64,000 nt of DNA from Phycisphaerales bacterium (GCA_026647365.1 JAPKGW010000015.1:4177-68176); one strand, 5' to 3'. Counted from the first letter of the stretch, positions 27,695 through 60,525 are shown. Numbers and translations are program-made. Notes: generated from the sequence alone by a model not told the origin.

Positions 27695-27751
27695 GCCTCG
27701 CTCCGTCGTTGAAGGCGCAAGTATACCGGGTCGTGGGAAACACAACGCGGC

Positions 27752-27926
27752 GTAGGGTGGGATAGGCGATGCTCCGGGAGCGCATCCCACCAGGTTGGAC
27801 GATCGACCCTCAAAGCAGTCCCGAATCCCCGCCCCGGCCGCCCGCAGCCTACCCGCTCACGTCGGCACCGGTGCCAGCCCGACAAAGGTGTGATGCGCTT
27901 CCAAAGCCGCGCTTATCCCACCCTAC
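27752..27926. repeat. MITE-like element, family B (175 bp, ~40-bp imperfect terminal inverted repeats GTAGGGTGGGATA...)
   Basis: The left end GTAGGGTGGGATAGGCGATGCTCCGGGAGCGCATCCCACC matches the reverse complement of the right end GGTGTGATGCGCTTCCAAAGCCGCGCTTATCCCACCCTAC at about 32/40 positions. Confidence 0.8.
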
Positions 27927-27965
27927 CGCCGAGCCCATGCTACTTGCTGTAGGGTGGGAAAGGCG

Positions 27966-28099
27966 GGTGCCGTGGTCCGCAGGGAGGTTCAGCGACCGAA
28001 GGGCAACGTCGTCGCGCGGACAGGCGATCATTCTTATTCGATTGTCGATCGCGCGCCCGCGTGGCCCGCGCTCCCAAAGCGTCGCTTGACCACGGCACC
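27966..28099. repeat. MITE-like element, family A copy 1 (134 bp, 12-bp TIR GGTGCCGTGGTC/GACCACGGCACC)
   Basis: Perfect 12-bp terminal inverted repeats. Near-identical to 28719-28852. Confidence 0.85.
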
Positions 28100-28171
28100 T
28101 CGGCAGGTTGTTCAAAGTGGAGTCTAAGCCACATCATCTGCTCCTTAAGACTGAAAGGGTGTTGCGAGCCA

Positions 28172-28304
28172 GTTGCCGTAGTGCAAAGGGAGGGTTGCGA
28201 TCTGAGGGCCACGGCGATGGCGCGTTCGTCAGCCAGCGTACGTTGATTGTCTCCCGCACGCTCGCGTGGCCCGCGCTCCCAAAGCGTCGCTTGACCACGG
28301 CACC
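28172..28304. repeat. MITE-like element, family A copy 2 (diverged left half)
   Basis: The right ~55 bp (CTCGCGTGGCCCGCGCTCCCAAAGCGTCGCTTGACCACGGCACC) is identical to copy 1. The left half is recognisably related but mutated. Confidence 0.7.
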
Positions 28305-28608
28305 CGGCGATCGCAGCCGCACTGCGAGTCAGGCAGGCAGCCCTCAGAGCCGGCCAGCCCGCTCCAGTCGCCGACCCCGCCCTCTCGAAACTGATTTCAC
28401 CGCCCCCGCAAGCCAATCGGCCCCGCCCGGGAGCCGCTGGTTAACTCTCAAGAGTCCCCGCGCGTGCCTTCCGATACGACTCCCGCAACGCGCGGCGGAC
28501 TCTCCGCACTTCCCGCCCCCTCTCCCGCCACGCCGCAATGCCTGCCCCTGCCTCACACTTCCCCGCACGCCCCGGCAGACTCCTTCCCCGTACCTTGCGT
28601 TTCCTCAG

Positions 28609-28669
28609 CCCTCCCGCGCGTTTCCCCCGTCCAGCGCGAAGAGAGGAGGAAGGAAACGACAAAGCCCCG
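28609..28669. repeat. ~60-bp direct repeat, family C copy 1 (internal CGTTTCC/GGAAACG hairpin)
   Basis: CCCTCCCGCGCGTTTCCCCCGTCCAGCGCGAAGAGAGGAGGAAGGAAACGACAAAGCCCCG. The second copy is at 28867-28927. Confidence 0.8.
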
Positions 28670-28718
28670 TAGCGATGGCAAGCGCCAGAGACCGCATCAA
28701 GGCAAAGAGTGCTCCGAG

Positions 28719-28852
28719 GGTGCCGTGGTCCGCAGGGAGGCTCTGCGACCGGAGGGCCACGCCGTCGCGCGGACGCGCGATCATTCTCATTCGATTGTCG
28801 ATCGCGCGCTCGCGTGGCCCGCGCTCTCAAAGCGTCGCTTGACCACGGCACC
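28719..28852. repeat. MITE-like element, family A copy 3
   Basis: 134 bp with the same perfect 12-bp TIRs and only a few substitutions relative to copy 1. Confidence 0.85.
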
Positions 28853-28866
28853 TGGCAATTCCCCCG

Positions 28867-28927
28867 CCCTCCCGCGAGTTTCCCCCGTCCGGCGCGAAGT
28901 TACGAGGAAGGAAACGACACAGCCCCG
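28867..28927. repeat. ~60-bp direct repeat, family C copy 2
   Basis: CCCTCCCGCGAGTTTCCCCCGTCCGGCGCGAAGTTACGAGGAAGGAAACGACACAGCCCCG. Confidence 0.8.
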
Positions 28928-28997
28928 ACTCGCACTACTCTGGCCGGAACAAGAAACGCCGCCCACCCCAAGCCGGCGGCCCAAAGCCATGACCGCC

Positions 28998-29126
28998 TCC
29001 CACCGGGTTGGACGACCGACCTTCAAGGCACACCCGAATCCCCCGCCCCAACCCGCCCGCGTCCGCACCGATGCCCGCCGAACAAAGGTGCGATGCGCTT
29101 CCAGAGCCGCGATTATTCCACCCTAC
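28998..29126. repeat. MITE-like element, family B copy 2 (left TIR missing)
   Basis: Aligns to 27789-27926 (…CCCACCGGGTTGGACGACCGACC…GATGCGCTTCCAGAGCCGCGATTATTCCACCCTAC). Confidence 0.75.
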
Positions 29127-29231
29127 AATTCCGGGCTACTTGCTTGGTCGTGTCGATGAAGCGACGCGCGCGGCGCGTCGTGGCCCGCCGATCGTTTCCG
29201 GTTTGCATGCGCGAACCTACCCTGTGTTGTC

Positions 29232-31665: not shown

Positions 31666-31940
31666 GGCGTGATCAGGCCGCAGTAGCCCCCGCGCGGCCG
31701 GGGAGACAGCCTCCCGCGCGAGGTTGAGCCGGAGAACAGTTGATCAGGCGACCGCAGGTGTCGAGGACGCCAGCCTCGATCGCTGCACGAGTGCGCGCCG
31801 GCTCTCTCACCTGGTCACCTGCTCCACTTTTCACCTGCTCTATTGCCGCATTGCGGCAATCGGGGCGACTGGCACTCGTTTGAACCGGTCGGAACCCTCA
31901 TTGAGCGATATGTGGCGGCATTCGTCGGCCCTTCGGATGA

Positions 31941-33209
31941 TCACTGGCGACTCGCGGAGCGCCTTGCGCGAGCCTGTGCTTGACGAGGCGGCTGTTTCAG
32001 GCGGTAGTAGCCCGTCTTTGGAGCCCCTGTGAACTCGATCTGGTCGCCCAGGTCGGCCAGATCGCGTTTCGCCGTCGCGCGAGACACCTTGAACTCCCGC
32101 TCGATGTCCTTGCGCCTGACCTGACGGCCGGCCCTCAATGCGGCGAGCGCCCACTTGTGCCGCGCATTTAGCACGACAACCTTCGGCTGACCTGCACCGT
32201 CGTCCGTTACGGGGTCATTTACAGGGTCATCCGCGCCGCGCGCTGCCGCGACCGGGAGACTCTCCGGCGCCTTTCGACCGTGGCGATGGCCGTTTCCATT
32301 GCGGAATACGGGGTCATCGATTCCCTTTACAGGGTCATCGCTGGCGGCTTCGGTCAGACGGGACATGCCGTTGGACTCGCTGGGTGGGCATCGGACTTCC
32401 GATGCATCGCGCACGATGATCTTCGAAGTAAACCGATAGCCAAGCCCGTCCGTGTTCTCGATGACATCGCTTCGGCCACAATCGATCCCGCGCTCATGCC
32501 GAAGCCGCTTTCGCACCTTGCCACGGAATGTGGCGATCGCTTCCGTGGCAGCATTCTGGCCTCGAAGCGCTTTCGCTGCTCGGGCCAGATCCGCGCCGCT
32601 GATGCTCCGGTACCGGCCGTCTGGATATGTCGTTCGAAGCTCGTCGAGGATTGTTCGCATGATGCCTGATGCGACATCCCCACAGACCCTTACGCCGCAC
32701 AGGTCAACCCTGTCAGGGTAGAACACCAGTTCGCCGCCCTCGAAGGGTCTGAGCGGCGCCGCTTCAGCCCGCGAGCCAGATTGGTTGCCAGCGGCTTTCA
32801 TTCGGGGCTCGAGCACCTTTCGGACTACCGATGGGAGAGTCCTCCCCGTCTCTGGAAACGGCTTCGAGATGAACTCGTTGGCACCGAGTCGCACGAACTC
32901 GGTCGTGCGGTCCACACAGACGCTTGAGTGAGCGGTAATCACGATCACCGGCAGATCGACCGACGAATACCGCTCCCGGACTTGCCGGAGCAGATTGGCT
33001 CCACACTCAATCGAGGCCCCTCCTCGCCCGCGGCGAGCCGGAATGTGGAGATCGAGAAGAACATAGTCGAGGCGACTCACACCGAGCGCCTCGATCGCCT
33101 CCTCCTGACTGGCCACGCTTGTGAATGTGTGCCCGAGCGAGTACAGTGCATCTTCGATGGATCGAACGATTCGATCATCATCCTCGACGATCAGTGCCCT
33201 GATCTCCAT
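31941..33209 (-). CDS. Response regulator: REC + OmpR/PhoB-type winged helix + Asp/Pro-rich linker + extra C-terminal HTH
   Basis: The REC domain has 'ALIVEDDD', 'YVLLDLHIP', 'VIVITAHSS' and 'FISKPF'. The wHTH is 'LVFYPDRVDLCGVRV...VRKRLRHE...GLGYRFTSKI'. The C-terminal HTH-like segment is 'RKDIEREFKVSRATAKRDLADL'. The ATG shares 1 nt with the kinase stop (TGATG). Confidence 0.85.
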   Translation of the reverse strand: MEIRALIVEDDDRIVRSIEDALYSLGHTFTSVASQEEAIEALGVSRLDYVLLDLHIPARRGRGGASIECGANLLRQVRERYSSVDLPVIVITAHSSVCVDRTTEFVRLGANEFISKPFPETGRTLPSVVRKVLEPRMKAAGNQSGSRAEAAPLRPFEGGELVFYPDRVDLCGVRVCGDVASGIMRTILDELRTTYPDGRYRSISGADLARAAKALRGQNAATEAIATFRGKVRKRLRHERGIDCGRSDVIENTDGLGYRFTSKIIVRDASEVRCPPSESNGMSRLTEAASDDPVKGIDDPVFRNGNGHRHGRKAPESLPVAAARGADDPVNDPVTDDGAGQPKVVVLNARHKWALAALRAGRQVRRKDIEREFKVSRATAKRDLADLGDQIEFTGAPKTGYYRLKQPPRQAQARARRSASRQ

Positions 33210-34351
33210 CAGGTCACCCTCCCTGCCATCGCGGAAGGCAATCGAATTGTCACGGTGGTGCCGGCCCCCTCCTCACTCTCAATCGTGAGCGTGCCGCCAT
33301 GTGCGTCGATCTTCCGCATCGCGTTGGGCAGGCCGTATCCCGTGCTGTTTCGCTTGTTCTTGTTCCGGCGGCCTGGTGTGTGCAGGTAAAGCATCCTGCC
33401 TTCCTCTTCCGAGAACCCCATGCCATTGTCGCGTACGATCACGCTCACACAATCGCTGCCTTCGGCGGCATGTATCTCGATCCGACTGGGGGGATCGCTC
33501 GCGTCCCTGAACATAAACGCCTCGAAGGCGTTCTTCAGGACATTGGCAAACGCAGCAACGAGTTGGTGCTCGGCCGCTTCGACGACGATGCGATCCGCGA
33601 CGTCGATGTTCACTCCCACGAGGTTCGGGTCGATTCCGTTCAATCGACGCACGCTCGCTTTGGCCTGATCCAGCGCCTTGGCGACGAGAGAACGAAGGGG
33701 GAGCTTCTTGAAGGCAAGATCGAGCGGTTCGGTGAACTGCTCCATGTCCCGGATCGTGCGTTCCAGGTGGTTGAGCCCGTCCTGAATGTTCCCCACCCGC
33801 CGTCCTTGAGGAGCACCCGCGGCACTGATCATTGACGCGACATTGGATTTCAGATGGGTGACGATGTTCCGCAGGTCATGCACCATCGCGCCCACGAGTT
33901 GCTCGTTGAACCGGCGGCAAAGCCGCCACGCCTCCTGTGCGGCTGGCCTGCCGTATCGGTTCTCGATGGCGTCGAGTTCCGCAGCAATCTGATCTGCCCC
34001 CGCGATGGCTCTCGCTCGCGTTCGTGCTGCCGTGCGGCGCTTCTCAATCGCCTTCGAGGCACGCTGGCGCACGAACGCATTCTCATCTCCGCCCAAGTTG
34101 CTCCTGAGCGTGTCGAAGAGCGGCTCCGGCACGATCTCGAGCAGTCCGGCCACAGCGTGTCGAACCTCGGGCTTGGGGTCGGACGCGAGGATCAACACTG
34201 CGGCGAGGGCGTCTGGTGCGGGCGACGGCCCGTCGATGTGATCACGCAGCCAGTGCGCCAGCTCGACGCGCCGGGGCCAGGGCACGGCCTCTTGACCCGA
34301 CAACACTGAAGCCAGATCGGCCGCCGACGCATTGGGTTCAACCAGCGTCAT
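33209..34351 (-). CDS. Soluble sensor histidine kinase with N-terminal HEAT-like repeats
   Basis: No TM segment. HEAT-like repeats 'DPKPEVRHAVAGLLEI' and 'GDENAFVRQRASKAIEK'. H-box 'MVHDLRNIV', N-box 'VLKNAFEA', G1 'DNGMGF', G2 'GYGLP'. The ATG overlaps the ATPase stop (ATGA). Confidence 0.85.
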   Translation of the reverse strand: MTLVEPNASAADLASVLSGQEAVPWPRRVELAHWLRDHIDGPSPAPDALAAVLILASDPKPEVRHAVAGLLEIVPEPLFDTLRSNLGGDENAFVRQRASKAIEKRRTAARTRARAIAGADQIAAELDAIENRYGRPAAQEAWRLCRRFNEQLVGAMVHDLRNIVTHLKSNVASMISAAGAPQGRRVGNIQDGLNHLERTIRDMEQFTEPLDLAFKKLPLRSLVAKALDQAKASVRRLNGIDPNLVGVNIDVADRIVVEAAEHQLVAAFANVLKNAFEAFMFRDASDPPSRIEIHAAEGSDCVSVIVRDNGMGFSEEEGRMLYLHTPGRRNKNKRNSTGYGLPNAMRKIDAHGGTLTIESEEGAGTTVTIRLPSAMAGRVT

Positions 34352-36276
34352 GATCTGGCCCTGTATCGCTCATGCCGGCATTGGAACGCCTTGTCACCTC
34401 CTTCGAGCAGATTCACGATCTCGTCCCTGCACTCATCGACTGTGCCCTGTCGCACTATCCAGGCCTTCCGTTCGTCCGCCGCCAGCACAAAGACGCGCTC
34501 GGCATCCCCCAGCACCGGGATGTTCGGATTGTGGGTCACGAAGATCATCTGTCGCATCGCCTTGATCCGCGCGATGCTTTGGACGACGCACTCGACGATG
34601 TACCCGTTGTCGATGTTGTCCTCGGGCTGGTCAATAAGCAGGGGCCGTTCGCTCTCCAGGAGCAGGATCGGCAGGATCGTCGTACACTTCTGACCTTTGG
34701 AAAGCCGCTGCGATTCGCGGAACTCCTCGCCGACCTTGAGTTCGATGCGGGGCAGGTCGGAGAGCTCGACCGACTCCAGATCGAGCAGGGCCTTTGATTC
34801 CTTCAGGGCCTCGACGACCTTCTGCGCCTGCTCGCCGTTCAGTTCCGCCTCGTTCACGAGACGATGGAGATCACCAGCCCGAATGATTTCGGCCAACTGC
34901 GCCGGCCAGCAGGCGCTGGTCAACTTGTCTGCGACAACCCCCTGCTTGAGACGGTTGTTCCGAAGGGCATCCTCAAGGAGTCTGCGATAGTGGCGGCGAT
35001 CGCCAGCCTCCGTCACGGTGACGCGGATGTTGCCGCTCATGGCGCCCGTGATCCGCTCCGCGATGCCCCGGCGTACGGCGAATCTCGTGTTGCGCAGGTC
35101 GGAGAGGCGTTCGAGAAGTTCCTTCCTCTCTGACAGAACGTCCTCCAGCCTGCGAATCCTCTCATCCCGAGTCCGCTGCTTGGCGAGCAGATCGTTGCGG
35201 AGCCGCTCGAGGCGAGAGCGCTCCGCCGCTTGCGACCGCGCCTTCTGGTGCTTGTCCATGATCGCCTGAAAGTCAAGTTCCTGCTGGTCGTGCGCGAGGG
35301 ACAAGTCCTCGCCCGCCGACCGAACAGCCTTTCGCGTGCGCTTCACGAGATCGACGCAGGATCCGAGGGCGGCATCGACTTCAGTACCGCAGTCGCCGAC
35401 GATCTTCCTGATTGCGTCGATGGCCTCAGCGTTGGGTCCGCCACGGACCCCGTCCGCGAAGACCTGCCGAACACCGCCCTTGATCTGTCCGCGTACCTCA
35501 CCCAAGGCACCGGCGTACTCCGACAGAAACTCCGCAATGCCGCTGACGGCTCGCTTTTCGCGGTCCCGCAGAGCCTTTAGAGTGTGGGCTCGATCGACGC
35601 CATCGACATCCTTTCCTCCTGGGTCTGCGTACCCCTTGAGTTTCTCCTCGACGCTGGGCAGCGCGGCCAGTTCCTCCGCCAGACTTGCGATCTGCGATTG
35701 AAGCGGCCCGATCGTGCCCGCATTCGAGTCCAGCGCATGCTCGATGGATCGAATCTCCTCGCCGACCTTCTCGATTTCATCGGACTCGAAGTTGTCGAGC
35801 AGGACGAGCTGTGACGAACCGCAGTCCGCGATCGATTCGATCTCGTTCTGGCTGTAGACATCCACATGCAGGATGCCGCCTCTGCGGAGCGAGATCTCTG
35901 TTGGCTTCCGATCCGCGTCGAGGACGATCGGATCCTCACCGAACGAGCGCGTGACGACGAATTCGATTCCGTCACGGGTCGCCGCCGTGGCCTCGACCCT
36001 GCCGCCGCCAAGGTTGTGGGCGAGGAGCGACTCAGCCCGCTTCGACGCTCCCTCACTGTCCAGCGTGGTCGACCCGGCGAAAACAAAGCGCACCAGTTCG
36101 AGTACGGTGGTCTTGCCCGTGCCTCGGCCACCAATGATGCAGTTCAAGCCGGCGCTCAACTCGATCTCGGCGCCATCGAGGAAGCCTCCGACGAAGCGGA
36201 TCGCCTTGATCAGCGGAGTCGATGCCTCGCCTTCGAGACGGTTTGAGTTCGCTTGGCTTCCGGTGATCTGCGTCAT
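34348..36276 (-). CDS. SMC/Rad50/RecN-like ABC-type ATPase with long helical insert
   Basis: Walker A 'IIGGRGTGKTTVLE'. A ~330-aa helical/coiled-coil-like middle. Signature-like 'LSKGQKCTTIL', Walker B/D-loop 'PLLIDQPEDNIDN', H-loop 'IFVTHNPNIPV'. Confidence 0.85.
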   Translation of the reverse strand: MTQITGSQANSNRLEGEASTPLIKAIRFVGGFLDGAEIELSAGLNCIIGGRGTGKTTVLELVRFVFAGSTTLDSEGASKRAESLLAHNLGGGRVEATAATRDGIEFVVTRSFGEDPIVLDADRKPTEISLRRGGILHVDVYSQNEIESIADCGSSQLVLLDNFESDEIEKVGEEIRSIEHALDSNAGTIGPLQSQIASLAEELAALPSVEEKLKGYADPGGKDVDGVDRAHTLKALRDREKRAVSGIAEFLSEYAGALGEVRGQIKGGVRQVFADGVRGGPNAEAIDAIRKIVGDCGTEVDAALGSCVDLVKRTRKAVRSAGEDLSLAHDQQELDFQAIMDKHQKARSQAAERSRLERLRNDLLAKQRTRDERIRRLEDVLSERKELLERLSDLRNTRFAVRRGIAERITGAMSGNIRVTVTEAGDRRHYRRLLEDALRNNRLKQGVVADKLTSACWPAQLAEIIRAGDLHRLVNEAELNGEQAQKVVEALKESKALLDLESVELSDLPRIELKVGEEFRESQRLSKGQKCTTILPILLLESERPLLIDQPEDNIDNGYIVECVVQSIARIKAMRQMIFVTHNPNIPVLGDAERVFVLAADERKAWIVRQGTVDECRDEIVNLLEGGDKAFQCRHERYRARS

Positions 36277-36691
36277 GACAGTGTCCTCGATGGGGTGAGA
36301 TGCAGCGGGGACCGCTCAGGCCCGAATCGCCCGCTTCGTGGAGCGATGTGGGCCAATATAGTCGGTTGACGTTAGGGTGTCAAACCGCGACACAGATCTC
36401 TATCTCCGTGCGACGAAGGCCGATTCTTGCCTCCGAGAATCGGAGCACAGAATCCCATTCAAATGCCTCGTCCTGTCTCAAGTTGGCGGCCAACGCCGGA
36501 GCCACGATCGCGTCCGTCCATCAGTCAGATCCGATCACGAATGGTCGACCGTCCCATCCCGCCTTGGCAGCACCCCTGCGCGGCACCGATCCATCAGTCT
36601 TTCAAGATCGCGAACCACCGGGTCAGTGCGGCTGCTGCCGTCGCACTGACCGAGAGTAGCGTCGACATCTCGGCGCTGATACGCTGCCGCT

Positions 36692-37813
36692 ATGATGAGC
36701 GACCCTCTCCGAACTCCGCCGACCTCCAAAGCCCTCCTGTCGCCAGGTCCGAGTCTCGCAAAACGACTGGCACGCCTCCTCGGCCAGCCGTTCAAACTCA
36801 CCGGCAAGACCAGAACGGACGGATCGAACCTCCGAAAAGTCGTCACGAGCGCGCTGGCGGCGGGCAGTCTGCCTCCACCGGCGGTGGAAGGTGCGTGGAG
36901 GTGCGTCGTTCCAAAGAAGAAGGGTGTTCCTCGACTCCTCCTTGAGTTTGTGGACACATACATCGTCACGACCGGGTCGTCCTACAACCTCCAAGTCTGG
37001 AATCGCAATCCCAGCGAACCCACGCCGCAGATCGAGTACGCCGACGGATCTCACCTGCGAGCCAACGATGTGCGGCTCATTCTGGTTCGTGTCGACCCAA
37101 CCAAAGCGTTGATCCGCACCGTCATCGTGATGACTCCGGACTATGTCGTTGAGCACTTCGGCAAGTTCGGAAAGCAGACTGTCAAGGAGCAGCTCATCAT
37201 CACGAACAGTGCCAGGTCCGAGGTGCTGAAGCGGCAACCACCAGTGCTCTTCTATCCCGACGAGGCGGGGGTGGCGACGATCCCCCCTGTCGACCTCTCA
37301 AACGCCGAAATGCATGCGTGCCCCAATGCCGAAGGCGTTCTCTCTCTTGACCGCATCCGCCAACTCGTGGTCCCCGCACTGATCGGCCGGCGGATTGACC
37401 CCGGTGCAACCAAGAATCGCGGGCAGGAGCTGGAGCGCATCGTTGCCGAAGTCCTGGGGTACAGGCCATCCGAGCAAGACTTACTCGCCGGCGGCTACCC
37501 TGATCTCAGGCACCAAGCACTTGAGGTCAAGGTGCAGGATGCGCCGACCGTCGATCTGGGGAGATACTCTCCGCAGTTTGATGAGCCTGTGCCCGACTGC
37601 GGCGCCTTTACGACGCGCACGACCCGATACCTCATCTCGCTGATGGATGCATCGACCGGTATCTGCAAGGGACTCATCCTTTGCCCCGGCTCCAAACTCG
37701 GCGCTCACTTTGTATATGTCGGCGAGCAGAGCTTCAAGTGCCAACGATCCATTCCGATGGCGTTCTTCTCCGCATTCGAGGGTCAAGCGGTTTTCAACCC
37801 GCCGTACCCGTGA
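36692..37813 (+). CDS. Putative type II restriction endonuclease (PD-(D/E)xK, MutH/Sau3AI-like core)
   Basis: 'NRGQELERIVAEVLGY...GGYPDLRHQALEVKVQ' resembles the MutH/Sau3AI catalytic block (G..E..LG...PD...E.K). It is convergent with, and overlaps, the methyltransferase gene. Confidence 0.55.
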   Translation: MMSDPLRTPPTSKALLSPGPSLAKRLARLLGQPFKLTGKTRTDGSNLRKVVTSALAAGSLPPPAVEGAWRCVVPKKKGVPRLLLEFVDTYIVTTGSSYNLQVWNRNPSEPTPQIEYADGSHLRANDVRLILVRVDPTKALIRTVIVMTPDYVVEHFGKFGKQTVKEQLIITNSARSEVLKRQPPVLFYPDEAGVATIPPVDLSNAEMHACPNAEGVLSLDRIRQLVVPALIGRRIDPGATKNRGQELERIVAEVLGYRPSEQDLLAGGYPDLRHQALEVKVQDAPTVDLGRYSPQFDEPVPDCGAFTTRTTRYLISLMDASTGICKGLILCPGSKLGAHFVYVGEQSFKCQRSIPMAFFSAFEGQAVFNPPYP

Positions 37814-39527
37814 CGGCCACTGCACCAACACCAAACGCGGCCGCGACGAGAAGGTCAATCTCCGACTCGATGGCTGCGACATCGAGCTCGCCACTGCCCG
37901 GATGGATCAGATTCCGGACCAGCCGAATGATCTCGTTCGACTCAGCGGACTTCCTGTCGGGCAGAGGGTACTGCTGGACATACTGCGTAAGGTAGCGCCG
38001 CCGCTGGGCATACAGGCGATTCTGAAAGCAGAGCTCGTGGTACCGAGCCATCGTTGACGAATTGGCCACTCCAAGAATCAGGAAAAGCAGTTCGATGTCG
38101 CGCGGGTCGTTCGCTGTGATCCAATAGCAGTTGCCGTCGACAATGCTCTCCTGGTCATCGAGGAAGAAGCGTGCGTCCGGGCTGATGTCCGGGAAGACGA
38201 TTTTCGGCTCCGCCCAGGCAGCGGGATCTTGCGGCACCCAGATCTCGTACCAGAGGCGCCCCGCGTCAAGGACGTACTTCCGCGATTCGAGTCGCTCCCG
38301 GTGATGGACGAGATACCGCCAAGCCCGTGACTCCTCAGCAAAGCGCACGGCGCGGCGCTCGCCGTCACGCACCTCATGAGTGTAGAGCACCCGGAGCAGA
38401 TCGGCACCGCTTCGGGACGGAACCCAACGAGCCGCATTCCGCTGGGAGAGAAGCGGCCGAAGATGCCGATCTTCCGGCCGCCGTTCCGCGGGCACATCAT
38501 CCCAATCATCGCGTATGAACACCTTGTCCGCCGTGGTCTTGATGCCGACGCGCACCCGAGCCACATCCGCTATTCGACACGCTGCGCTTCGGTCGACCGC
38601 CCGCACCCACTCACCCTCGTCTGATGTATGCATCGTCCAAGGCTGCGAAGAGTCCGGTGGTGCTTCGAGTCTGCCGGTCGAGACCTCGAACAGGGTTCCG
38701 TTCACGCGATACCGGCCATCTTTCGGAACGGCGATCGCAGCCGGGATGGACTCCACGAGCGTGGCAGTCGGCCCCTCACTCGTCGTCGAGTAGACTCGCG
38801 TGAACTCCGCCCGCATCGGCTCGTCGCTCAGCCTCGGAACATCTCGTCGCACGCCAAAGATCAGGGCCGGGAGCACGGCGGCTCCAAACAGCTTTGTGTC
38901 TCCGAGGTCGACGATCTCCAAGAGATCAAACTGGCTGCGGAGAAATCGCCTGGTCGATGCGCCTGCCTTCGTTGTGAGAAACCGATTCGAAGTGATTACG
39001 CCGAGCACTCCACCTGGTCGTAGCGATTCGGCCATCGCCACGAGGAATGCCTGATAGAGATCCACTCGACCTTCCAGCCCGAACTTGGCCGCCAGATGCT
39101 GAGCACGCTGAGCACCGAGCACTTGCGTGCGGACGTACGGCGGATTGGCGATCACGACTTCAACCGGATCGATCGGCGGCAGGGACGCGAACATCGTGCC
39201 ATCGTCCACGAGGTCGAGAAAGTCCCCCATCTTCAAGTCCGCAGGTGGAACGTCCTCCATCGTCGCGATCCGACGGGTGAGCGTGTCAAAGGATCCGATG
39301 TCGTCCTCGATGCCGACTAATGTGCTGCGCCGGCGTACTTCGGCAGGTAGCGCCTGCGCCATTGCCACAAGCAGGTTGCCGTCTCCACATGCCGGATCAA
39401 GTATGCGTAACGGCCCCTCGAAGCGCCACAGCTGTTGCGTCAGCCGCTGCGCTACCAGATCCGCAAGCGGCTTGGGGGTGAAGTGGGCGCCGGTCTGCTT
39501 TTGCTTGTCACGAGGCGTGGCATACAT
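37794..39527 (-). CDS. N6-adenine DNA methyltransferase (Eco57I/TaqI-like, gamma class)
   Basis: 'GAHFTPKPLADLV', motif I 'ILDPACGDGNLL', motif IV 'VIANPPYVRTQ', large C-terminal target-recognition region. Confidence 0.85.
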   Translation of the reverse strand: MYATPRDKQKQTGAHFTPKPLADLVAQRLTQQLWRFEGPLRILDPACGDGNLLVAMAQALPAEVRRRSTLVGIEDDIGSFDTLTRRIATMEDVPPADLKMGDFLDLVDDGTMFASLPPIDPVEVVIANPPYVRTQVLGAQRAQHLAAKFGLEGRVDLYQAFLVAMAESLRPGGVLGVITSNRFLTTKAGASTRRFLRSQFDLLEIVDLGDTKLFGAAVLPALIFGVRRDVPRLSDEPMRAEFTRVYSTTSEGPTATLVESIPAAIAVPKDGRYRVNGTLFEVSTGRLEAPPDSSQPWTMHTSDEGEWVRAVDRSAACRIADVARVRVGIKTTADKVFIRDDWDDVPAERRPEDRHLRPLLSQRNAARWVPSRSGADLLRVLYTHEVRDGERRAVRFAEESRAWRYLVHHRERLESRKYVLDAGRLWYEIWVPQDPAAWAEPKIVFPDISPDARFFLDDQESIVDGNCYWITANDPRDIELLFLILGVANSSTMARYHELCFQNRLYAQRRRYLTQYVQQYPLPDRKSAESNEIIRLVRNLIHPGSGELDVAAIESEIDLLVAAAFGVGAVAVTGTAG

Positions 39528-50999: not shown

Positions 51000-52244
51000 A
51001 TGGATGCTCCTCACAGACACGAAAGCGAGGGACTCTTGCTTCGTCGCCACGGGATCATCCACCTCCTTTCCGCCACCTTGTGCGCAGGGGCACTGTCGAT
51101 TCCGGCATTGGTGTGGTCGGGATCGGTCGATTTCGACGGCATCACGGCGGATGATCCCCCCACATCGCTGGTCACCCGTCCGTTCGTTGGCGCCAGCGGT
51201 CCCCCGAGCGACCCGATTGCAGCCGAGCCGCCCCCCGCGAATGGTTCGGGGACTGAACGCAAAAGGGCCGCAGCCGATGCGGACTTGGACGGCGATATGA
51301 TCGTCTTCGATCCGCCGATGGTCGACTTCGGGCGCGTCCTCGTTGGCTCAGTGGTCAGTCAGGTGGTCTGGATCATCAATGGGTCGGATTTCCCGGTTAT
51401 CGTGATGGAGACGAAGTCCACCTGCGGCTGCACAGTCGCCCGGATGACTGAATGGACCATTGCTGCGGGAGACGGGATTCCCACACGAATTGAACTGGTC
51501 GTGCCCCGCCGCGCATCGACCATTCAGAAGCAAGTGCGATTCCGATTCGGCGACGGACAGCCGGATCGTGTGTTGACGGTGAAGGCGCACGCGGTGCAGC
51601 CGGTCGTTCTGAGCCCGGAGTACCTTCGTGCGGACAACCTCGGCATTACCCGAGTCGTGGTTGAATCGACGGACAGTCAGCCATTCAGGATCCTCGGCGC
51701 AACACCATCAATACTCACTGATCCTGATGGGAGCAACGCGTCCATCCTGCATGAAGTAGGAATCGACAGGCTCCTCTGGTATGCCACGGGACAGCCCGAC
51801 CGAATCGACCTGCAACTCGATCATCCCGAAGCCAGTTCAGTGTCACTTTCCGTACGAGTGTCCTCGCTTCGGTCCGGTCACCGGTCCATTGATCAACCTT
51901 CGAGTCACGCGCGCGTCAAGATCATCCCACCGCCCAGACTGATGCTGTCCACAGATCGTCTCAGATTCGGCAAGGTGTCAGAGGAAGCGCCAAGCCAACT
52001 CGAACTAGCCATACTGGGGTCATTCGCTCCCGACACTCAGCCGGATCTCCGGATGGATTCTGGGCTGGCGGACTTAATGCTCGTTAGCATCGAGCACACC
52101 GCGGACGGCCTGACACTCTCCCTTCAACTCACGCCAAGGCCGGACCAAGCCGGCTACCTGCGCAGCGAGCTCGCCGTTCGAATCGGGGCTGCCCGCGCCT
52201 GGTGTGATGTGTTTGCCGCAGTAAACCTCACGACACGCGACTGA
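51000..52244 (+). CDS. DUF1573 (PapD-like Ig fold) repeat protein with N-terminal signal anchor
   Basis: 'FDPPMVDFGRVLVGSVVSQVVWIINGSDFPVIVMETKSTCGCTVA' is the DUF1573 signature (…CGCT). Two further Ig-like repeats follow. Confidence 0.7.
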   Translation: MDAPHRHESEGLLLRRHGIIHLLSATLCAGALSIPALVWSGSVDFDGITADDPPTSLVTRPFVGASGPPSDPIAAEPPPANGSGTERKRAAADADLDGDMIVFDPPMVDFGRVLVGSVVSQVVWIINGSDFPVIVMETKSTCGCTVARMTEWTIAAGDGIPTRIELVVPRRASTIQKQVRFRFGDGQPDRVLTVKAHAVQPVVLSPEYLRADNLGITRVVVESTDSQPFRILGATPSILTDPDGSNASILHEVGIDRLLWYATGQPDRIDLQLDHPEASSVSLSVRVSSLRSGHRSIDQPSSHARVKIIPPPRLMLSTDRLRFGKVSEEAPSQLELAILGSFAPDTQPDLRMDSGLADLMLVSIEHTADGLTLSLQLTPRPDQAGYLRSELAVRIGAARAWCDVFAAVNLTTRD

Positions 52245-52262
52245 AAGGGGCCATACTATACT

Positions 52263-55200
52263 ATGATGCATGTCCTCGCGATTCGCCAAGTATTGCGGCT
52301 TTCCCTGTGTTGGATGGCTGTCTGCCTCGGCGCGGACGGCGGTGCCTCGGCACAGGTCGCTCAGGATCTCACCTGCGAAGTAGTTCTATACGATGGTAAC
52401 GGTGGCGAAGTCGAAACGTGCTGTTTCGCTTGCGATAGCCAAGTCAACATCACAGTCACTCGTGGCTTTTGGTGGTCAGCCTGCGTCAATGGCGAGTGCC
52501 AGGATCCGTCAAGTGCCCAATGGATTGAGTACGATGTGATAAGCGCCACTATCCCGTTTTTCAGATGCAACGAGACTACCGCAAGCCCGTCCGACAACAC
52601 GGTGAGCTTTCGAGGCGTCGTCGGATTGAGTGAGTTCACGTTGGGCCATCCGAGATTCCAGGATTGCGACTCGGAAGAGTATGAGGGTGATGAACTTGAA
52701 GTGCTGGTAGTGTTCTACGGTGGTAATAGCCTCGGCGCGGACCCAACATGGACCGTAAGAGCATATTACCCGCCACGGACAAACTTGGACGCTTACGGTA
52801 CTCCGGATGAAGTTTGGTCATCTTTCGACGGTGGCGCCCTCGAACCGAATACCTCCTGCAACGAAGGCTCTTGGTATTACCAAAAGACTGTGTGCCTAGA
52901 CATGGAATCAGGATTTTGTGATGTGCCGCACCCAGTTACATGCGTTGACGGTTGTGACTGGTGTCCCGAAGGGGAAGATGTATTCGAGCAAACGAATGTA
53001 GACCTCTCCGTGTTCGGTCTCTCATCTCAACCTCTGGATTGCGATGATCTGAAGGAGCTCATAACGAATCCATTTAAGTGCAACCTAGGAGGGTCGTTGA
53101 CACCCGTTGAAATCCTTGAACTGCTCTACAACACAGACGGAGAGTGTGGGCCCCCTTGGACATGTGAGTCAATCGTCATTTGCCTCCTCGACATCCTCGA
53201 GCGAGCACTCACTGAGCAAGAAGCCGAAGCGGTCATCGATCAGCTCGACGAGTGGTTTACGGGCGAGAACGAGTGCCCGGACGGCAGCGCTATCACGAAT
53301 CCGCCAAATCCGGATGATGTGCTCGACGGCAGGGACGACAAGTTCCCGACGACCTGCCCGGACGGTGCGGGCGAACTTTCGGCATCGCCCGTTCACCTGT
53401 TCTCCGGCTCGAAAGCGGAAACCGTCATCGAACTGAACGTGCCGCTTCTCGGCGATGATTTTCAGGTGATTCGAACCTACACCAGCAACCCCGCCTACGG
53501 CGGCGCTGGGTTGGTCGGCGAGGGCTGGACGCTCTCCTGCTTTGACTACCTCGTGCCCGCGTATGTCATACACATCGGCTTCGCCTGGGGCGATCCTCGC
53601 GAATGGAGGGCCGCTGGCGGTGGTGTGTACTACCTCAGTGGCGGCTCGGCAGGGCTCGAAGAGACGACACTGAATTCAGTGCCAGTCTACAAGGAGACAC
53701 ATGAGGGTGAGCTGATTCGGTATTACCATCGGAGCGATTCGGGCACCTTTGCGCCACTCAAAGGCATGCTCTATCAGGAAGAAGACTGGTACGGCAACAT
53801 CCGAAGGTACGACTACAACACCGGCTACGGCAAGCCTCGCCTCGAAAGCATCTTCCTTGGCGGGACTGACGAGGCCACCTCCGAGGCGGTCATTCGCTTC
53901 ATGTGGGATCTTGGACACCCGAAGGGACGCCTGCTCTACATGCAGGTGCTTCGGTGGGAGAGCACGGTCCTGCGAGAGATCGAGAAGGTCAGCTATCTCT
54001 ATCAGGCGGATGGCGTGAACAATCACCTCGGCTCTCCCGGCGACCTGCTCCAGGTGACCCACCGGACGCACTTGGATCGCGTTGAGAGCGGTCCGAGCGT
54101 TTCGCACGAGCGCATCACCCAGTACCGGTACCATCGAGAGGGTGTGACGCCGGGCACGAGCGACGACCGCCTCGAAGTCGAGGGCGGCAACCACCAGCTC
54201 AAACTCGTCATCAATCCTGAGCAGATCGAGTATATCGCCCAGCGGCGCAATGAGGAGTCGGGCGGTACGCTTTATCCTGTTCTGAGCAAGGCGCTCAAGG
54301 AGACTGCGGCAGACCTGCTTGAGGCCGCGGACGACGATGAAGTCTTCTCGCCCACCGTAGGCGATCCAATTCTGCTCATCGACCTGGCGAGCAAGATCAT
54401 TGGATACGAGACCTCCGGACTCGGTCGCGTGGCGACGCAGTTCCTCCAGACCGGCGGCTGCGGCTGTAGCGGCGCTAGCGCGCAGGGTCTCAAGCAGACT
54501 TACACATACTTCACGAACGGGACGAACGACGAGTATCGCACCGTCAAGATCCTTGAGGAGCTGTACGACGAGTCCGTGCCTGGGTACATCACATTCCGTA
54601 CGCTCTACTACGACGTCGAGGGCCTCCAGTCGTCGCCGACAGGGCCCTACACGGCGCCGTACCTTGTGAACCGGGCGGTTGTCGAACCGACGGGCGACCA
54701 AAGGGAATGGGTCTGGCACTACGAGTACAACACCGGCAGCGATCGCACGCTCAAGTTCATGATGACGCCATCCGCGATGTCCGCTTACACGCCGGCCGAC
54801 GCGACGAATCCGGCGTCCTACACGGCGCACACGGATGAAGGACTCGTGTACGCCTACACATTCGAGGACTATCGCCTCGAAGAGACACGACTCGGCGAGG
54901 GCAAGCACAGCAACACAGTCGGCGACTACACGCTCATCACCAAGACAACCTACAACGCCACGCGCGAGTGGCTGCCCGATTCGATCGAGCGGTTCCGCGT
55001 GGCCGGATCGACCAACGCTGACGATGTCGAGAAGACGCTCTTCGAGTACGGCTTCTTCAGCTCGACCGACCGCGTCGCATGGATTCGCATCAAGACCGAG
55101 GCAGAGCTGGTCAGCGAGAATGGCCCGGGCATTTCCGGCGGATACTACGAATCATATGAACTCTACAGTTCCTCCGGCGAGAATATCTGGAGTCGTGCAG

Positions 55201-58200
55201 CAGATCACTCGCTCACGAACCGCACTTTCGACGCAGCCCACGGTCGCGTCACGAGCATCGTGCGGAACGCGGCACAGTCCGGGCTGCCGGGTTGGGGCGG
55301 CAGCGGGCACGAGGGACTGACCTACTCGGGCTGGACCGACCGGAACGCCGACGGCGGCGCCGTCGAAACTGAGTATGTCTACGACCTCCTCGGTCGCCAA
55401 ATCGAGCGCATCGCACCCGGAGGAATCTCGTCATACACGGTGCGCGAGACGCGCTCCATCGAGTCGCGGCCCTACATGTTGTACTACGCGGAGGTCATGC
55501 TTCCTCCGAAGGAGGGATCGGAGTTCAGCGGCGATGTGCGGATTGCGTGGTTCAACGCCGGCGGCGAGGTTATCGGCTCGAGCAATCATAAGATCACCGC
55601 GATCGTCACGACTCCGACGATTGACTACACCCTCACGGATGAACTCGGTCGCTCACGGGTGACTCATTTGCTCTCGGGCCTCGTGGAGAAGCGAGAAGAC
55701 TGGCACGATGTCGACCAGGATCCGTACGCCACTGCATACACGTACGACGATGCCGGACGACTCAAGACCATGACCGATCCGATCGGCACGATCACAGAGA
55801 ATGCCGCATACGATGTCCTCGGTCGTGTGCTCAAGGTCAAGGTCGGGCAGACCGGTGGGAGCAATGTGACGGTCGCCGAGTACTTCTACGACTTCGACCA
55901 CGGTGGCTCATTCGGCAGCCCCGCGCAAGGCCTGGGCAACGGCAACCTGACCTATGTGCGCGAGCATGTCGGTGTCAGCACCGTACGCGACACGCTGCGC
56001 GACTTCGATTTCCGCGACCGGCCGTATCGGACGCTCAACGAAATCTCGCCCCACGAATTCGTGGCCTACGACAATCTCAGTCGCATCGTCGAGCGCGGCG
56101 TGTTCGATGCCACGCCAACAGGCATCGGAACTCCTCTGGGCAACCGCGGCCTCTTTGTGAAGACGCACTACAGCCAGCGCGGACTCGTCTATCGACAGTC
56201 GATCGCGACCGATCCGACCAGCGGCGACCCCGAGTTCCTTCAAACCAATTCCTGGTTCGACCCCAACGGCCGCACAGTCGTTCAGTGGTCGCCCAACTCG
56301 CCGATCATCAAGCGCGAGTTCGACGGCCTCGGTCGCACGGCTGCATCATACGTCGTGCGCGACGCGACGCTTTATGCCTATGGTCCGGGCAGGAACAGCA
56401 CTCCGCCCATCGACGATGACGGAAGCCTATCTCCGAGTCTCCCATACGACATCGTGCTGGAGCAGACGGAATACGAATACACGGCCGACGATCGACTGGA
56501 GTTCGTCACGGCCCTGCGCCGGGTTCACGACGCCACGGCCAGCGGGCCGCTGACCTACAACGGGGCCGGCGAAACGCCTCTCGGCGTGCCGACCTACGTC
56601 GGTCACTACTACGACGACTTCAATCGCCGCATCCGCACCGTCAACATCGGCACGAACGACACCACCGACGATCGTTTCAGCGCCGGCAACGCCCCGCCGT
56701 CCTGGCCCCCGGGCGAGGTTCCCGAGTGGGACGACATCGACTTTGAGGATTTCCTCGTCAGCGCCACCGAGTACGACGAGCGTGGAAGACCCTTCCTCTC
56801 CGTCGATCCCGAAGGCAAGCAGACGCGAATCTTCTTCGACGCCATGCATCGCCGGATCGCCGTGGCGGAGAACTACGTCAACGCAGAGGTGACGGAGTGG
56901 TCGTCGGGCAACGGCCGCTGGACCATCACGGGCGTCGGCGGCTCCTCCGGCGAAACCGATGAGGACCGGGTGACCAGCTTCGTCTATGACGGCGCGGGCA
57001 ACATCGTCAAGCAAATTGCCCACATTCCAGGCGGCGATCTCCAGGAAACGCACTACCTCTACGAGGCCGCCCCGGCCAATCTCCTCAGCGAGGTTCGCTA
57101 CCCGAATGAGTCGACCGGCGTCGCCGGGACGACGCGCGAGTACAAGGTGCTCTACACCTACAACCGCCTCGGAGAACTTGCCTCGGTCGCGGACCAGAAC
57201 GAAACGCTCCATGAGTACGAACGCGATGAACTGGGCCGGGTCACGTTGGACGCCGTGACCGTGATAAGCACTCCGATTGATAACTGGGTGCTCGCCATAG
57301 GTGTGGACTATGACGACTTCGGCCGATTGGAGAAGGTCACCTCTTACACCGACGAGACTGCGACCACGATCAAGAACCAGGCAGAATTCGCCTACACCCC
57401 GCTCTGGCAGATCAAGGAGGTCTACCAGGACCACGACAGCGCGGTTGCCTATGACGGCTCAGGCGTGCCCACCGGCAACACCGTGCGCGTCCGCTACGCC
57501 TACTCCACCGCCGACATCGACTCAGGCAATTACAGCCGCCTGAGCACCATCACATATCCAGATGGTTCGGCGTACAACCAGTCCTACGGCACGACTTCCG
57601 CCGATCTCGACGACCACATCAGCCGCCTCACGCACATGCGCGTCGGCAGCACCGGACCGAACACGGTCGAATACCGGCACCTCGGTCTCGGCATGGTCGC
57701 CGAGGTAGACTACCCCGCCCCCGACATTCAGCTTGACCGGACTGTGAGCCACGACGGCAAGCGGCGGATGCAGTCTTACACCAGCCAGAACGCCGGCATC
57801 TACCCCGGCTGGGACCGCTTCGGCCGCGTCAAGAAGCACGCCTGGGTCGATGGCGGCTACACGACCGGCAGCGGCGGCAATCCCGACCGCCCGCCCCTCG
57901 TCGAGATCGACTACACCTACGACCGATCGAGCAATCGCCTCACCCGCACCGACGCGCGCCCCGGCGCGTCGTGGGCCGACCGCGACTTCCGCTATGAGTA
58001 TGACGGCCTCGATCGCCTCGTGCAGGCGGACCGCGGGGCCGAGGGGGGCTCATGGTCCTCTGCCGTGGGCGGTCAGAAGTGGGCGCTTGACATGCTCGGC
58101 AACTGGGATTCCATCTGGAATGACTCCAACGGCGATGGGAACTACACCTCATCCAGCCCCGACGAAGAGACCGAACGCACCCACAACTTCGCCAACGAGA

Positions 58201-59921: not shown

Positions 59922-59926
59922 GGCGC

Positions 59927-60412
59927 ATGAGCAGATGGCTTTATACTTTCGTCGTCTGTAGCGACCCGGTCCTAACACAGATTGCCTCGCTGATGGCGCA
60001 TGCCGATTCGCAGCATCTTGAAGTCCAGCGCGTTGAGTCATTGCTGTTGGGCGCACTGGAGCGGAATGCATCACCCGTGGCTTACTTTCGGATGATAATG
60101 GATGGGTGGAACTGTACGCACGAGCGATTGATGGAATTAGGAATGGTTTGCTGCGCAGATTTGCGCACCGATCTCATGCTATTAAGTCGGCAGCATTGGG
60201 TGCAACTCTCGATCTCAGAGGAATATGCCGCCAATGTATCCCAAGAGCAATGCGTGGATGCAGAACCCGGGGGATACGCCGTGCTTGCATTTAGGCGGGC
60301 GCTTGCTGACATGTTTGGGTTCATGCAGGGCACACACCGACCCGGCATCATATTATGTCGTTGCCTCGGTCCGAGTCGCGATGATCGAGATTATCGACCT
60401 AATATTATCTGA
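59927..60412 (+). CDS. Hypothetical protein, candidate cognate immunity protein for the Rhs C-terminal domain
   Basis: The ATG is 5 nt after the Rhs stop, with GGAG upstream. G+C is visibly lower, like the Rhs 3' end. No recognisable motif. Confidence 0.5.
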   Translation: MSRWLYTFVVCSDPVLTQIASLMAHADSQHLEVQRVESLLLGALERNASPVAYFRMIMDGWNCTHERLMELGMVCCADLRTDLMLLSRQHWVQLSISEEYAANVSQEQCVDAEPGGYAVLAFRRALADMFGFMQGTHRPGIILCRCLGPSRDDRDYRPNII

Positions 60413-60525
60413 GCCTTGGCGGCACTCGTGGCGGCTCGCCTCGCGAGACGCTGCGAGGTCTATCGCCGCTGCAACGATGCAGAAGTGGGCGCTGGACATG
60501 CTCGGCAACTGGGATTCCATCTGGA

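Follow-up and report, generated by a model that had tools for sequence, protein, structure and literature searches.

A conserved, mobile triad of an SMC/Rad50-like ATPase, a histidine kinase and a response regulator from a Phycisphaerales bacterium, most likely an invader-sensing signalling system

A stretch of 64,000 nucleotides (nt) from a Phycisphaerales bacterium (GCA_026647365.1 JAPKGW010000015.1:4177-68176), referred to below as the window and used for the numbering of all its positions, carries on its minus strand three overlapping genes coding for an ATPase of the SMC/Rad50 fold, a soluble histidine kinase, and a response regulator with two winged helices. There is hardly any room for doubt that this triad is a real, conserved and mobile module, and its occurrence in hundreds of homologous loci lies far beyond chance. 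The most likely reading is a signalling system, not described before, that senses invaders, with a biological role most likely in defence or in conflict between mobile elements, and on balance it probably works as a phosphorelay with the ATPase as its sensor and an invader-related role. It can be viewed as a defence-island system anchored on an ATPase, with a proposed phosphorelay output. Its three genes, as delimited by open reading frame (ORF) calls, are as follows:

34348-36276, minus strand: gene 1, ATPase, 642 amino acids (aa)
33209-34351, minus strand: gene 2, histidine kinase, 380 aa
31941-33209, minus strand: gene 3, response regulator, 422 aa

The stop codon of gene 1 and the start codon of gene 2 overlap in an ATGA (34348-34351, junction sequence AGATCATGACG), and those of genes 2 and 3 in a TGATG (33207-33211, junction sequence CCTGATGGAG), an arrangement consistent with translational coupling of the triad. 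A chain of three overlapping minus-strand genes had been proposed in a first-pass annotation of this DNA, and both the ORFs and the two junctions are indeed found as it placed them.

The same gene order recurs far outside the window. Seven ATPase homologues, 46-83% identical to the one in the window and chosen for their long contigs, are without exception (7/7) followed by a kinase of ca. 380 aa and then by a receiver protein of 214-422 aa, and these seven triads occupy seven different neighbourhoods. A scan of genome contigs with the single ATPase returned one near-identical locus only; profile scans gave 80 metagenome loci (of at least 580 matches) and 71 IMG/VR loci. In this metagenome and IMG/VR set, a HEAT-kinase and a receiver protein follow the ATPase in 84 loci, in the same order as in the window, which bears out the expectation that the triad would form a conserved neighbourhood in unrelated genomes. 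ORF analysis revealed no exception among the loci in which the ATPase is at least 35% identical and the contig is long enough. Searches started from the side of the kinase or the regulator again reach triads, in three contexts (P0134, P0235, and P0165). The genes are tightly packed as well: at the junctions in 12 gene-called contexts they overlap by 1-38 nt or lie no more than 12 nt apart. The three genes are inherited together, as their pairwise identities are strongly correlated among 53 complete triads (r=0.92 for the ATPase and the kinase, r=0.84 for the ATPase and the receiver protein).

Planctomycetota chromosomes carry the triad, as do metagenomes and IMG/VR proviral contigs, and a variant of it is found on Klebsiella and Shinella plasmids. 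A decayed triad is found in locus L171 (5650-7200), where only ATPase residues 104-196 and regulator residues 1-42 are left around an intact-looking kinase, showing that the cassette can be lost through erosion. It had been considered earlier that the kinase and the regulator might turn out to be a housekeeping pair living without the ATPase; this is not what was found, as all homologues of either protein with a checked context lie in triads or in the decayed triad, bar one prophage variant (L166). This prophage-like region (L166/L167, 2812-12922) comprises a lambda-type portal, a protease-capsid fusion, a 225-aa kinase devoid of the HEAT module, and a 727-aa regulator, then McrB-McrC, with a TIR protein nearby. 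Compared with the regulator of the window, that of L166/L167 scores 51% in the receiver, 37% in the winged helix, and 54% in the C-terminal helix-turn-helix (HTH), and it has an insert of ca. 370 aa. The same kinase/regulator lineage is used there without the SMC-like ATPase.

The extent of the cassette can be read from locus L004, a Phycisphaerales metagenome-assembled genome with an ATPase 83% identical to that of the window. Similarity between the two runs from just upstream of the -35 box to ca. 240 nt past the regulator stop codon and both flanks differ; the promoter block is kept, but beyond the -35 box the upstream sequences have nothing in common. Because the homology spans just that block, the mobile unit in the window reaches from about 36390 to 31703. 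Two non-coding features delimit it:

36355-36383, minus strand: sigma70-like promoter TTGACA-17-TATATT, 11/12 consensus matches, ca. 79 nt upstream of the ATPase ATG
31703-31940, minus strand: conserved non-coding 3' tail; homology with L004 ends at ca. 31703

The promoter is the sole TTGACA-17-TATATT site within 31.5-37 kb. Reading of the sequence places a GAGGA box before the ATPase ATG and a GGAGG-like box before the regulator start, and a scan of 31-37 kb against Rfam gave no match above noise. The G+C content is 0.61-0.63 over ca. 31-39.5 kb versus 0.65-0.68 on both sides, a dip that is typical of an acquired island. Two more dips lie elsewhere in the window, at 51000-54000 and 58000-61000 (0.57-0.58 versus ca. 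0.65), and may be other acquired segments. A separate stretch, 27750-29130, is repeat-rich and apparently non-coding; it comprises three families of 78-136-nt direct repeats (e.g., 27965-28100, 28170-28305, and 28718-28853) together with an inverted repeat whose arms are 40 nt long (27752-27791 and 27887-27926).

The product of gene 1 is an ABC ATPase of the dimer type whose coiled coil resembles that of SMC/Rad50 proteins. Its features are the following, with conservation taken from alignments of 14 and 26 homologues (A1 and A4, respectively):

36106-36132, minus strand: Walker A motif GGRGTGKTT, residues 49-57, a conserved motif
35041-35820, minus strand: antiparallel coiled-coil insert of ca. 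260 aa, residues 153-412 (AF2 secondary structure and conservation)
34771-35028, minus strand: accessory alpha/beta domain, residues 417-502 (AF2 pLDDT ca. 90), separating the coiled coil from the C-terminal head lobe
34522-34704, minus strand: C-terminal head motifs, with S526, G528, Q529, D549-D553, and H582 invariant in the 14 and 26 homologues
34687-34704, minus strand: signature LSKGQK, residues 525-530
34609-34641, minus strand: Walker B/D-loop LLIDQPEDNID, residues 546-556
34522-34542, minus strand: H-loop FVTHNPN, residues 579-585

Within the Walker A motif, neither A1 nor A4 shows any variation at G49, R51, G52, G54, and K55, and T57 is invariant in A4 and nearly so in A1, so that the Walker A, signature, Walker B, and H-loop motifs read off in the first-pass annotation are all present, with residues invariant in both alignments. 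Pfam recognises AAA_23 and AAA_21 in the protein. An AF2 model built from 26 homologues (pLDDT 80) shows the coiled coil and the additional alpha/beta domain alongside a split ABC head, and its top Foldseek matches are Rad50, MukB, Smc, JetC, and RecN (E 5e-11 to 6e-08); RecF and LmuB are also among the nearest solved structures, the identity being 10-14%. The split head together with the antiparallel coiled coil, supported by motifs, AF2, and Foldseek alike, confirms the SMC/Rad50/RecN-type architecture suggested earlier. The helical insert of ca. 330 aa given in the same description does exist, but it is made up of the ca. 260-aa coiled coil plus an 85-aa domain and is not one helix. A G-P-N motif (residues 280-282) lies in the coiled coil between helices 275-279 and 283-341; G280 and N282 are invariant in A4 and P281 nearly so. 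In the accessory domain, Y430, L438, and P458 are invariant, and the whole domain falls inside the region aligned with the TrlF profile.

This profile, NCBIfam TrlF_fam_ATP (NF045780), matches the ATPase with E 6e-87 and 293 bits, without reaching the curated cut-off of 350; residues 19-639 are aligned with profile positions 286-944 of 944. The ATPase also matches NCBIfam Spaf_1101 (NF045781, 5e-47, below the curated cut-off) and the Ppl models (NCBIfam NF042955, 4e-29, 101 bits versus a cut-off of 1000, profile positions 271-881; PADLOC Ppl, PDLC02208, 3e-23). The likeness to TrlF, Spaf_1101, and Ppl thus extends over the full length of the window ATPase and takes in the coiled coil and the accessory domain as well as a C-terminal EGGxxAF motif. 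What the protein lacks is the N-terminal effector domain of ca. 285 aa found in TrlF/Ppl, only 18 residues preceding the aligned region. That domain, ca. 260-285 aa long, is PHP-like/histidinol-phosphatase in the annotation of one record; Pfam at E<0.001 did not detect a PHP domain in two TrlF-type examples. TrlF and Ppl are single polypeptides of 860-990 aa (883-896 aa in the plasmid TrlF proteins), whereas the window ATPase is shorter and is followed by a kinase and a regulator instead; a single gene with a PHP domain fused to the ATPase, as defines Ppl, is not what the window holds. TrlF genes are common on conjugative plasmids and adjoin defence genes such as brxL, and Ppl is a validated anti-phage protein of unknown mechanism (PMC11482910). 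Gene 1 thus codes for the ATPase core of the TrlF/Spaf_1101/Ppl clade and is a relative rather than a member of these three families, because it scores below all three cut-offs and has no such defining N-terminal domain. The protein is no orphan SMC, being a full-length relative of TrlF/Spaf_1101/Ppl.

A Rad50/RecN/SMC fold, the PGAP Gene Ontology term 'double-strand break repair' on relatives, and a transcription-factor-like output protein could also suit a housekeeping checkpoint of DNA repair or chromosome maintenance, in which a RecN/Rad50-like sensor would relay DNA damage to transcription in Planctomycetota. Such a function is highly improbable, as the genomic position differs even among ATPases 83-88% identical, the local G+C content is below that of the surroundings, copies are carried by plasmids and proviral contigs, one copy (L171) is decayed, and the flanks are made up of defence genes.

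Gene 2 shows the marks of a HisKA-type histidine kinase, with the following domains:

34022-34231, minus strand: HEAT-like module, residues 41-110 (Pfam HEAT_2 at 45-102, and conservation)
33878-33880, minus strand: phospho-acceptor H158 of the DHp domain (Pfam HisKA at 150-207)
33227-33586, minus strand: catalytic domain, residues 256-375 (Pfam HATPase_c at 261-373)

Two of the Pfam matches are below the curated cut-offs: HEAT_2 scores 24 bits against 27.7, and HisKA 21.9 bits against 26.9. The DHp histidine and the N, G1, and G2 boxes are nevertheless all there, H158, N270/N274, D308/G310/G312, and G338/G340 being at least 90% conserved among 66 homologues, in keeping with the description of gene 2 as a complete histidine kinase in the first-pass annotation. 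No transmembrane segment is apparent on reading the sequence. These features show gene 2 to code for what is predicted to be a catalytically intact cytoplasmic histidine kinase. Leaving the catalytic domain aside, no other gap-free part of the kinase is as well conserved in these 66 homologues as the HEAT region (41-110).

Gene 3 codes for the cognate OmpR-type response regulator of this kinase. It comprises:

32787-33209, minus strand: receiver domain, with D10, D11, D53, T92, and K116 conserved
33051-33053, minus strand: phospho-acceptor D53
32400-32747, minus strand: OmpR/PhoB-type winged helix, residues 155-270 (Foldseek on the model)
32181-32393, minus strand: disordered linker, residues 273-343
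31995-32180, minus strand: C-terminal HTH_11-like winged helix, residues 344-405

By sequence, Pfam Trans_reg_C was not detected in the regulator and the 155-270 domain was missed by Pfam altogether; the structural model superposes on full-length KdpE, VanR, MtrA, RpaA, and PrrA (Foldseek, E ca. 1e-11, ca. 270 columns). With its Asp-pocket receiver and winged helix the protein falls within the OmpR/PhoB family, and it shares with KdpE, VanR, MtrA, and RpaA the conserved phospho-acceptor residues. It differs from them in the extra linker of ca. 70 aa and the second, HTH_11-like winged helix, and also in having a cytoplasmic cognate kinase whose gene is preceded by that of an ATPase. All three domains ascribed to it earlier (the receiver, the OmpR-type winged helix, and a second C-terminal HTH) were found.

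The 3' tail holds three direct copies of GAGCAGGTGA/CAGGTGA at 31808-31840 and inverted CACCTG copies at ca. 31755-31765, about 50 nt further. The same layout of three direct and three inverted copies ca. 50-70 nt apart recurs after the regulator gene in L004 (12340-12580) and L056 (3420-3545). The tail folds as a long imperfect hairpin (z -2.8). It seems more likely to act at the DNA level than as a structured RNA, because in L056 the repeats lie past a canonical terminator. A reading of the tail as an integron attC-like site was dropped for want of a GTTRRRY core. Other short repeats, with a spacing of 10-11 or 21-22 bp, are found right after the regulator gene in L027, L104, L124, L121, and L128. 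Arrays, counted as such when a 300-nt region holds an 8-mer at least six times with up to one mismatch, are present in 9/61 downstream regions versus 4/121 control windows and 5/55 upstream regions; enriched yet confined to a minority of loci, they are candidate sites of the regulator.

Restriction-modification (R-M) genes adjoin the cassette in the window, although outside its boundary:

36692-37813, plus strand: type II restriction enzyme (PADLOC REase_II, 4e-14)
37794-39527, minus strand: Eco57I/TaqI_C-type N6-adenine methyltransferase (PADLOC MTase_II, 2e-199)

The two genes run towards each other and share 20 nt (37794-37813) at their 3' ends. The upstream R-M context is the same in L001, with an ATPase 88% identical. 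Elsewhere the neighbours are different. In L004, a type I R-M system lies upstream along with Abi_C and a NucS-like gene, and the genes downstream are unrelated; L009 has a SacI-type R-M system and a complete Lamassu, L010 a type I R-M system, Mrr, Schlafen, and HipA, and L165 a sacsin-like giant ATPase and OLD. IS66, IS21, rve, and Mutator transposases and tyrosine integrases are found in L002 (Pirellula sp. SH-Sr6A, CP011272), L007, L008, L168, and L172. Defence genes usually make up a low share of bacterial genomes. The flanks were surveyed in 94 nearest ORFs of 33 non-redundant loci with PADLOC at E<=1e-8, the figures being raw counts. The PADLOC matches include WYL (5), HmaB (3), HmaC (2), MTase_II (at least 3), REase_I (2), DUF499 (2), E2-like (2), and PglX (2), and the Pfam matches TIR_2 (2), HNH_3 (2), and ResIII (3). 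Regulators with WYL and WCX domains are the commonest flanking family, with 5/94 nearest ORFs (flanks of L002-L056). The expectation that the loci would sit in defence islands was borne out by the R-M, Lamassu, OLD, Abi, and TIR genes, together with the transposase and integrase flanks. A defence role of the triad rests on these neighbours and on the homology of the ATPase to Ppl, evidence that is circumstantial, and the role is accordingly best called putative.

It had been proposed that the regulator switches the adjacent R-M pair. In such an arrangement, Ambrosia-like or C-protein-like, the two-component pair would regulate the R-M genes and the ATPase would be an accessory to them; the type II restriction gene, divergent from the triad, does lie 415 nt away, L004, L009, and L010 also have R-M genes beside the triad, and Ambrosia sets a precedent for control of R-M-like enzymes by a kinase and a receiver/winged-helix regulator. 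The proposal is not supported and is quite improbable: neighbours vary by locus, the R-M type being different each time (type II, type I, SacI) and R-M genes being missing in L002, L006, L007, L008, L168, and L172; the conserved cassette stops at its own -35 box; CAGGTG, the one repeated motif tied to the cassette, forms no cluster in the R-M promoter regions; and there is no XRE or HNH partner.

The cassette often lies on or beside proviral or other mobile DNA, because about half of the IMG/VR (proviral) matches (34/71) are of the triad type. It could therefore be asked whether the triad serves the element that carries it, the ATPase detecting DNA damage, replication stress, or a superinfecting element, and the regulator switching excision, replication, or transfer genes. 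Besides the proviral matches, integrases and transposases flank many copies, and the outputs are mostly DNA-binding domains, with one sigma54 activator. Moreover, in the class of 255-aa regulators four to six 11-bp tandem units (e.g., CGATCCATCAC) lie ca. 15 nt past the stop codon (L116 8340-8400, L128 11144-11200, L111, L114, L117, L127, and L121), and an AlpA/HTH_17 gene follows at ca. +140, then AAA_24 and SNF2-helicase genes, typical of replication modules. The 11-bp units could be iterons or operators of the mobile element, or sites bound by the regulator. Service to the carrier element is nonetheless unlikely, since many copies (the window, L004, L006) have neither adjacent element genes nor a same-strand gene downstream, restriction and abortive-infection neighbours are commoner, and the sister clades, with their Ppl-type fusion, kinase-like, and PP2C outputs, resemble conflict effectors.

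An invader-sensing role of the triad is also to be viewed against the known systems with similar components. Detocs, the DtcABC phosphorelay defence (Rousset et al. 2023), is reportedly composed of a kinase, a buffer receiver, and a receiver-nucleosidase effector, with no ABC ATPase. The triad resembles it in the histidine kinase to receiver core of a defence-island system and in the soluble kinase with a helical-repeat N-terminus; it differs in having one receiver protein with DNA-binding outputs and an SMC-like ATPase, and no nucleosidase. As to Detocs itself, PADLOC gave only generic receiver matches (its Detocs models are unconfirmed in v2). A kinase/receiver system of DefensePredictor was considered and rejected, as it is of the purine-phosphorylase (Detocs-like) kind and not the triad. 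Ambrosia comprises five fixed genes, AbrR-AbrA-AbrB-AbrC-AbrD, coding for an XRE regulator, an N6 methylase, a kinase, a receiver/winged-helix regulator, and an HNH nuclease; it is a validated defence, in which the kinase-type ATPase and the regulator were proposed to induce transcription on infection (bioRxiv 10.1101/2025.09.30.679545). It shares with the triad the kinase, the receiver/winged-helix regulator, and the association with R-M-type genes. However, Ambrosia has no SMC-like ATPase, and the triad has no XRE or HNH component, its R-M neighbours being variable and outside the cassette. In Lamassu (LmuB), Wadjet (JetC), Gabija, PARIS, and Septu, as in the triad, an ABC/coiled-coil ATPase senses or engages and a separate protein provides the output; the ATPase gives weak motif-level PADLOC matches to LmuB (N-terminal, E 2e-6), AriA, PtuA, and GajA. 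In contrast to the triad, from which these ATPases differ with an identity of 10-14%, their partner is a nuclease or kleisin-like and never a phosphorelay. The LmuB, LmuA, and LmuC set that makes up Lamassu is not present at the locus in the window, and the Lamassu of L009 is a separate system beside the triad. In line with the earlier remark that the three genes match no named system, there is no system-level model for the triad in PADLOC v2 or NCBIfam, and the PADLOC matches of the kinase and the regulator are to generic receivers only.

The triad is part of a wider ATPase family. At E<=1e-3 the ATPase profile recovers 8,559 representatives of clusters formed at 50% identity, a number that falls to 2,353 at E<=1e-30, and nearly all of the best 150 matches are stand-alone proteins of 620-650 aa. 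The type of the partner varies with the ATPase clade:

clade a (window type): HEAT-kinase and a regulator with a variable C-terminus, four main output classes
clade b: shorter kinase and a fusion of a receiver with a kinase-like domain of the TCAD9/APH type; on an IncF plasmid of Klebsiella pneumoniae and a Shinella plasmid, and in soil and IMG/VR contigs
clade c: one PP2C/SpoIIE phosphatase of ca. 370 aa; metagenome contigs
clade d: N-terminal fusions of 860-990 aa (TrlF/Ppl) without kinase or regulator; common on conjugative plasmids, one adjoining brxL

In clade a, 31/64 complete regulators carry the winged helix of the window and one is a sigma54 AAA+ activator. The plasmid representatives of clade b, on K. 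pneumoniae plasmid NZ_CP054974 (L011, 38405-42550) and Shinella plasmid NZ_CP015743 (L012), comprise an ATPase of 611-616 aa, a kinase of ca. 300 aa, and a 480-aa fusion of a receiver with the TCAD9/APH kinase-like domain. This variant adjoins a SMEK-domain gene (in L011) and IS elements and bears generic PGAP names; the Klebsiella copy has no megablast match in complete E. coli genomes. The clade c ATPases (L059, L072, L074, L077, L086, and ca. 10 more) are 31-34% identical to that of the window. The constant part of the partner in clades b and c is an N-terminal adaptor and not the enzyme, because the N-terminal 100-146 residues of the clade c phosphatase form a helical module homologous to the N-terminus of the short clade b kinase (40% over 146 aa, E 3e-23), the only part that the two partners share. 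The sister clades support a design in which the ATPase stays constant as the sensor while the output can be exchanged.

In the mechanism proposed for the triad, the ATPase would be the input device, its heads and coiled coil engaging an invader cue in an ATP-dependent manner and changing conformation; foreign or broken DNA and a phage or plasmid protein are the candidate cues. The kinase would read this change via its N-terminal HEAT-like module. The docking surface that the first-pass annotation saw in this module has gained indirect support, from the high conservation of the HEAT region and from the sharing of an N-terminal module between kinase and PP2C partners in the sister clades. The kinase would then autophosphorylate at H158 and pass the phosphate to D53 of the regulator, and the phosphorylated regulator would bind DNA with its two winged helices, the GAGCAGGTGA arrays in the 3' tail being the candidate sites within the cassette. 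The output would be transcription or DNA occupancy, and not a nuclease.

Several points weigh against this picture. The contact between the ATPase and the kinase is one that we infer from conservation and domain sharing, and the match between the HEAT region of the window and the clade b/c adaptor is weak (hhalign P 0.0016, probability 16%). The link of the regulator to the repeat arrays is positional only, the arrays being clear in a minority of loci. No conserved operator was found in the cassette's own promoter, nor any conserved regulated (fourth) gene after the cassette, and in the window a convergent gene ends right against the tail. Nothing in the triad can be recognised as a toxic effector, and it is uncommon for defence systems to have DNA binding as their sole output. 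The location of many loci inside mobile elements fits element regulation as well as defence. Finally, as regards novelty, no description of the triad was found in the searchable literature, and an earlier in-silico mention may exist.

Should the sensing mechanism be as proposed, the triad may stand for a large unnamed family of immune or conflict systems, in which a Ppl-core ATPase feeds a phosphorylation cascade, a HEAT-like adaptor couples it to a kinase or a PP2C, and the regulators bear interchangeable outputs; this broader view is tentative and has somewhat less than an even chance of being right. If it is true, the interchangeable outputs comprise OmpR-type DNA binding, a sigma54 activator, a protein-kinase-like domain, and several unknown domains, and the copy in the window would answer an invader via transcription reprogramming or DNA occupancy instead of cutting. 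It would then be the first case of a chromosome-maintenance-type ATPase reading the stimulus for a two-component system, and would connect SMC/Rad50-type ATPases with two-component phosphorelays, machineries with no known cross-talk. It would also give a handle on the sensing of infection by Ppl, as the sensor is separate from the output and phosphotransfer is easily measured. The family is large (the 2,353 clusters at E<=1e-30), and a tractable plasmid-borne version of it exists in Klebsiella. The triad adds a candidate to the few phosphorelay defences (Detocs and Ambrosia), and its transcription-factor output could mean an immunity that is inducible and not constitutive or suicidal.

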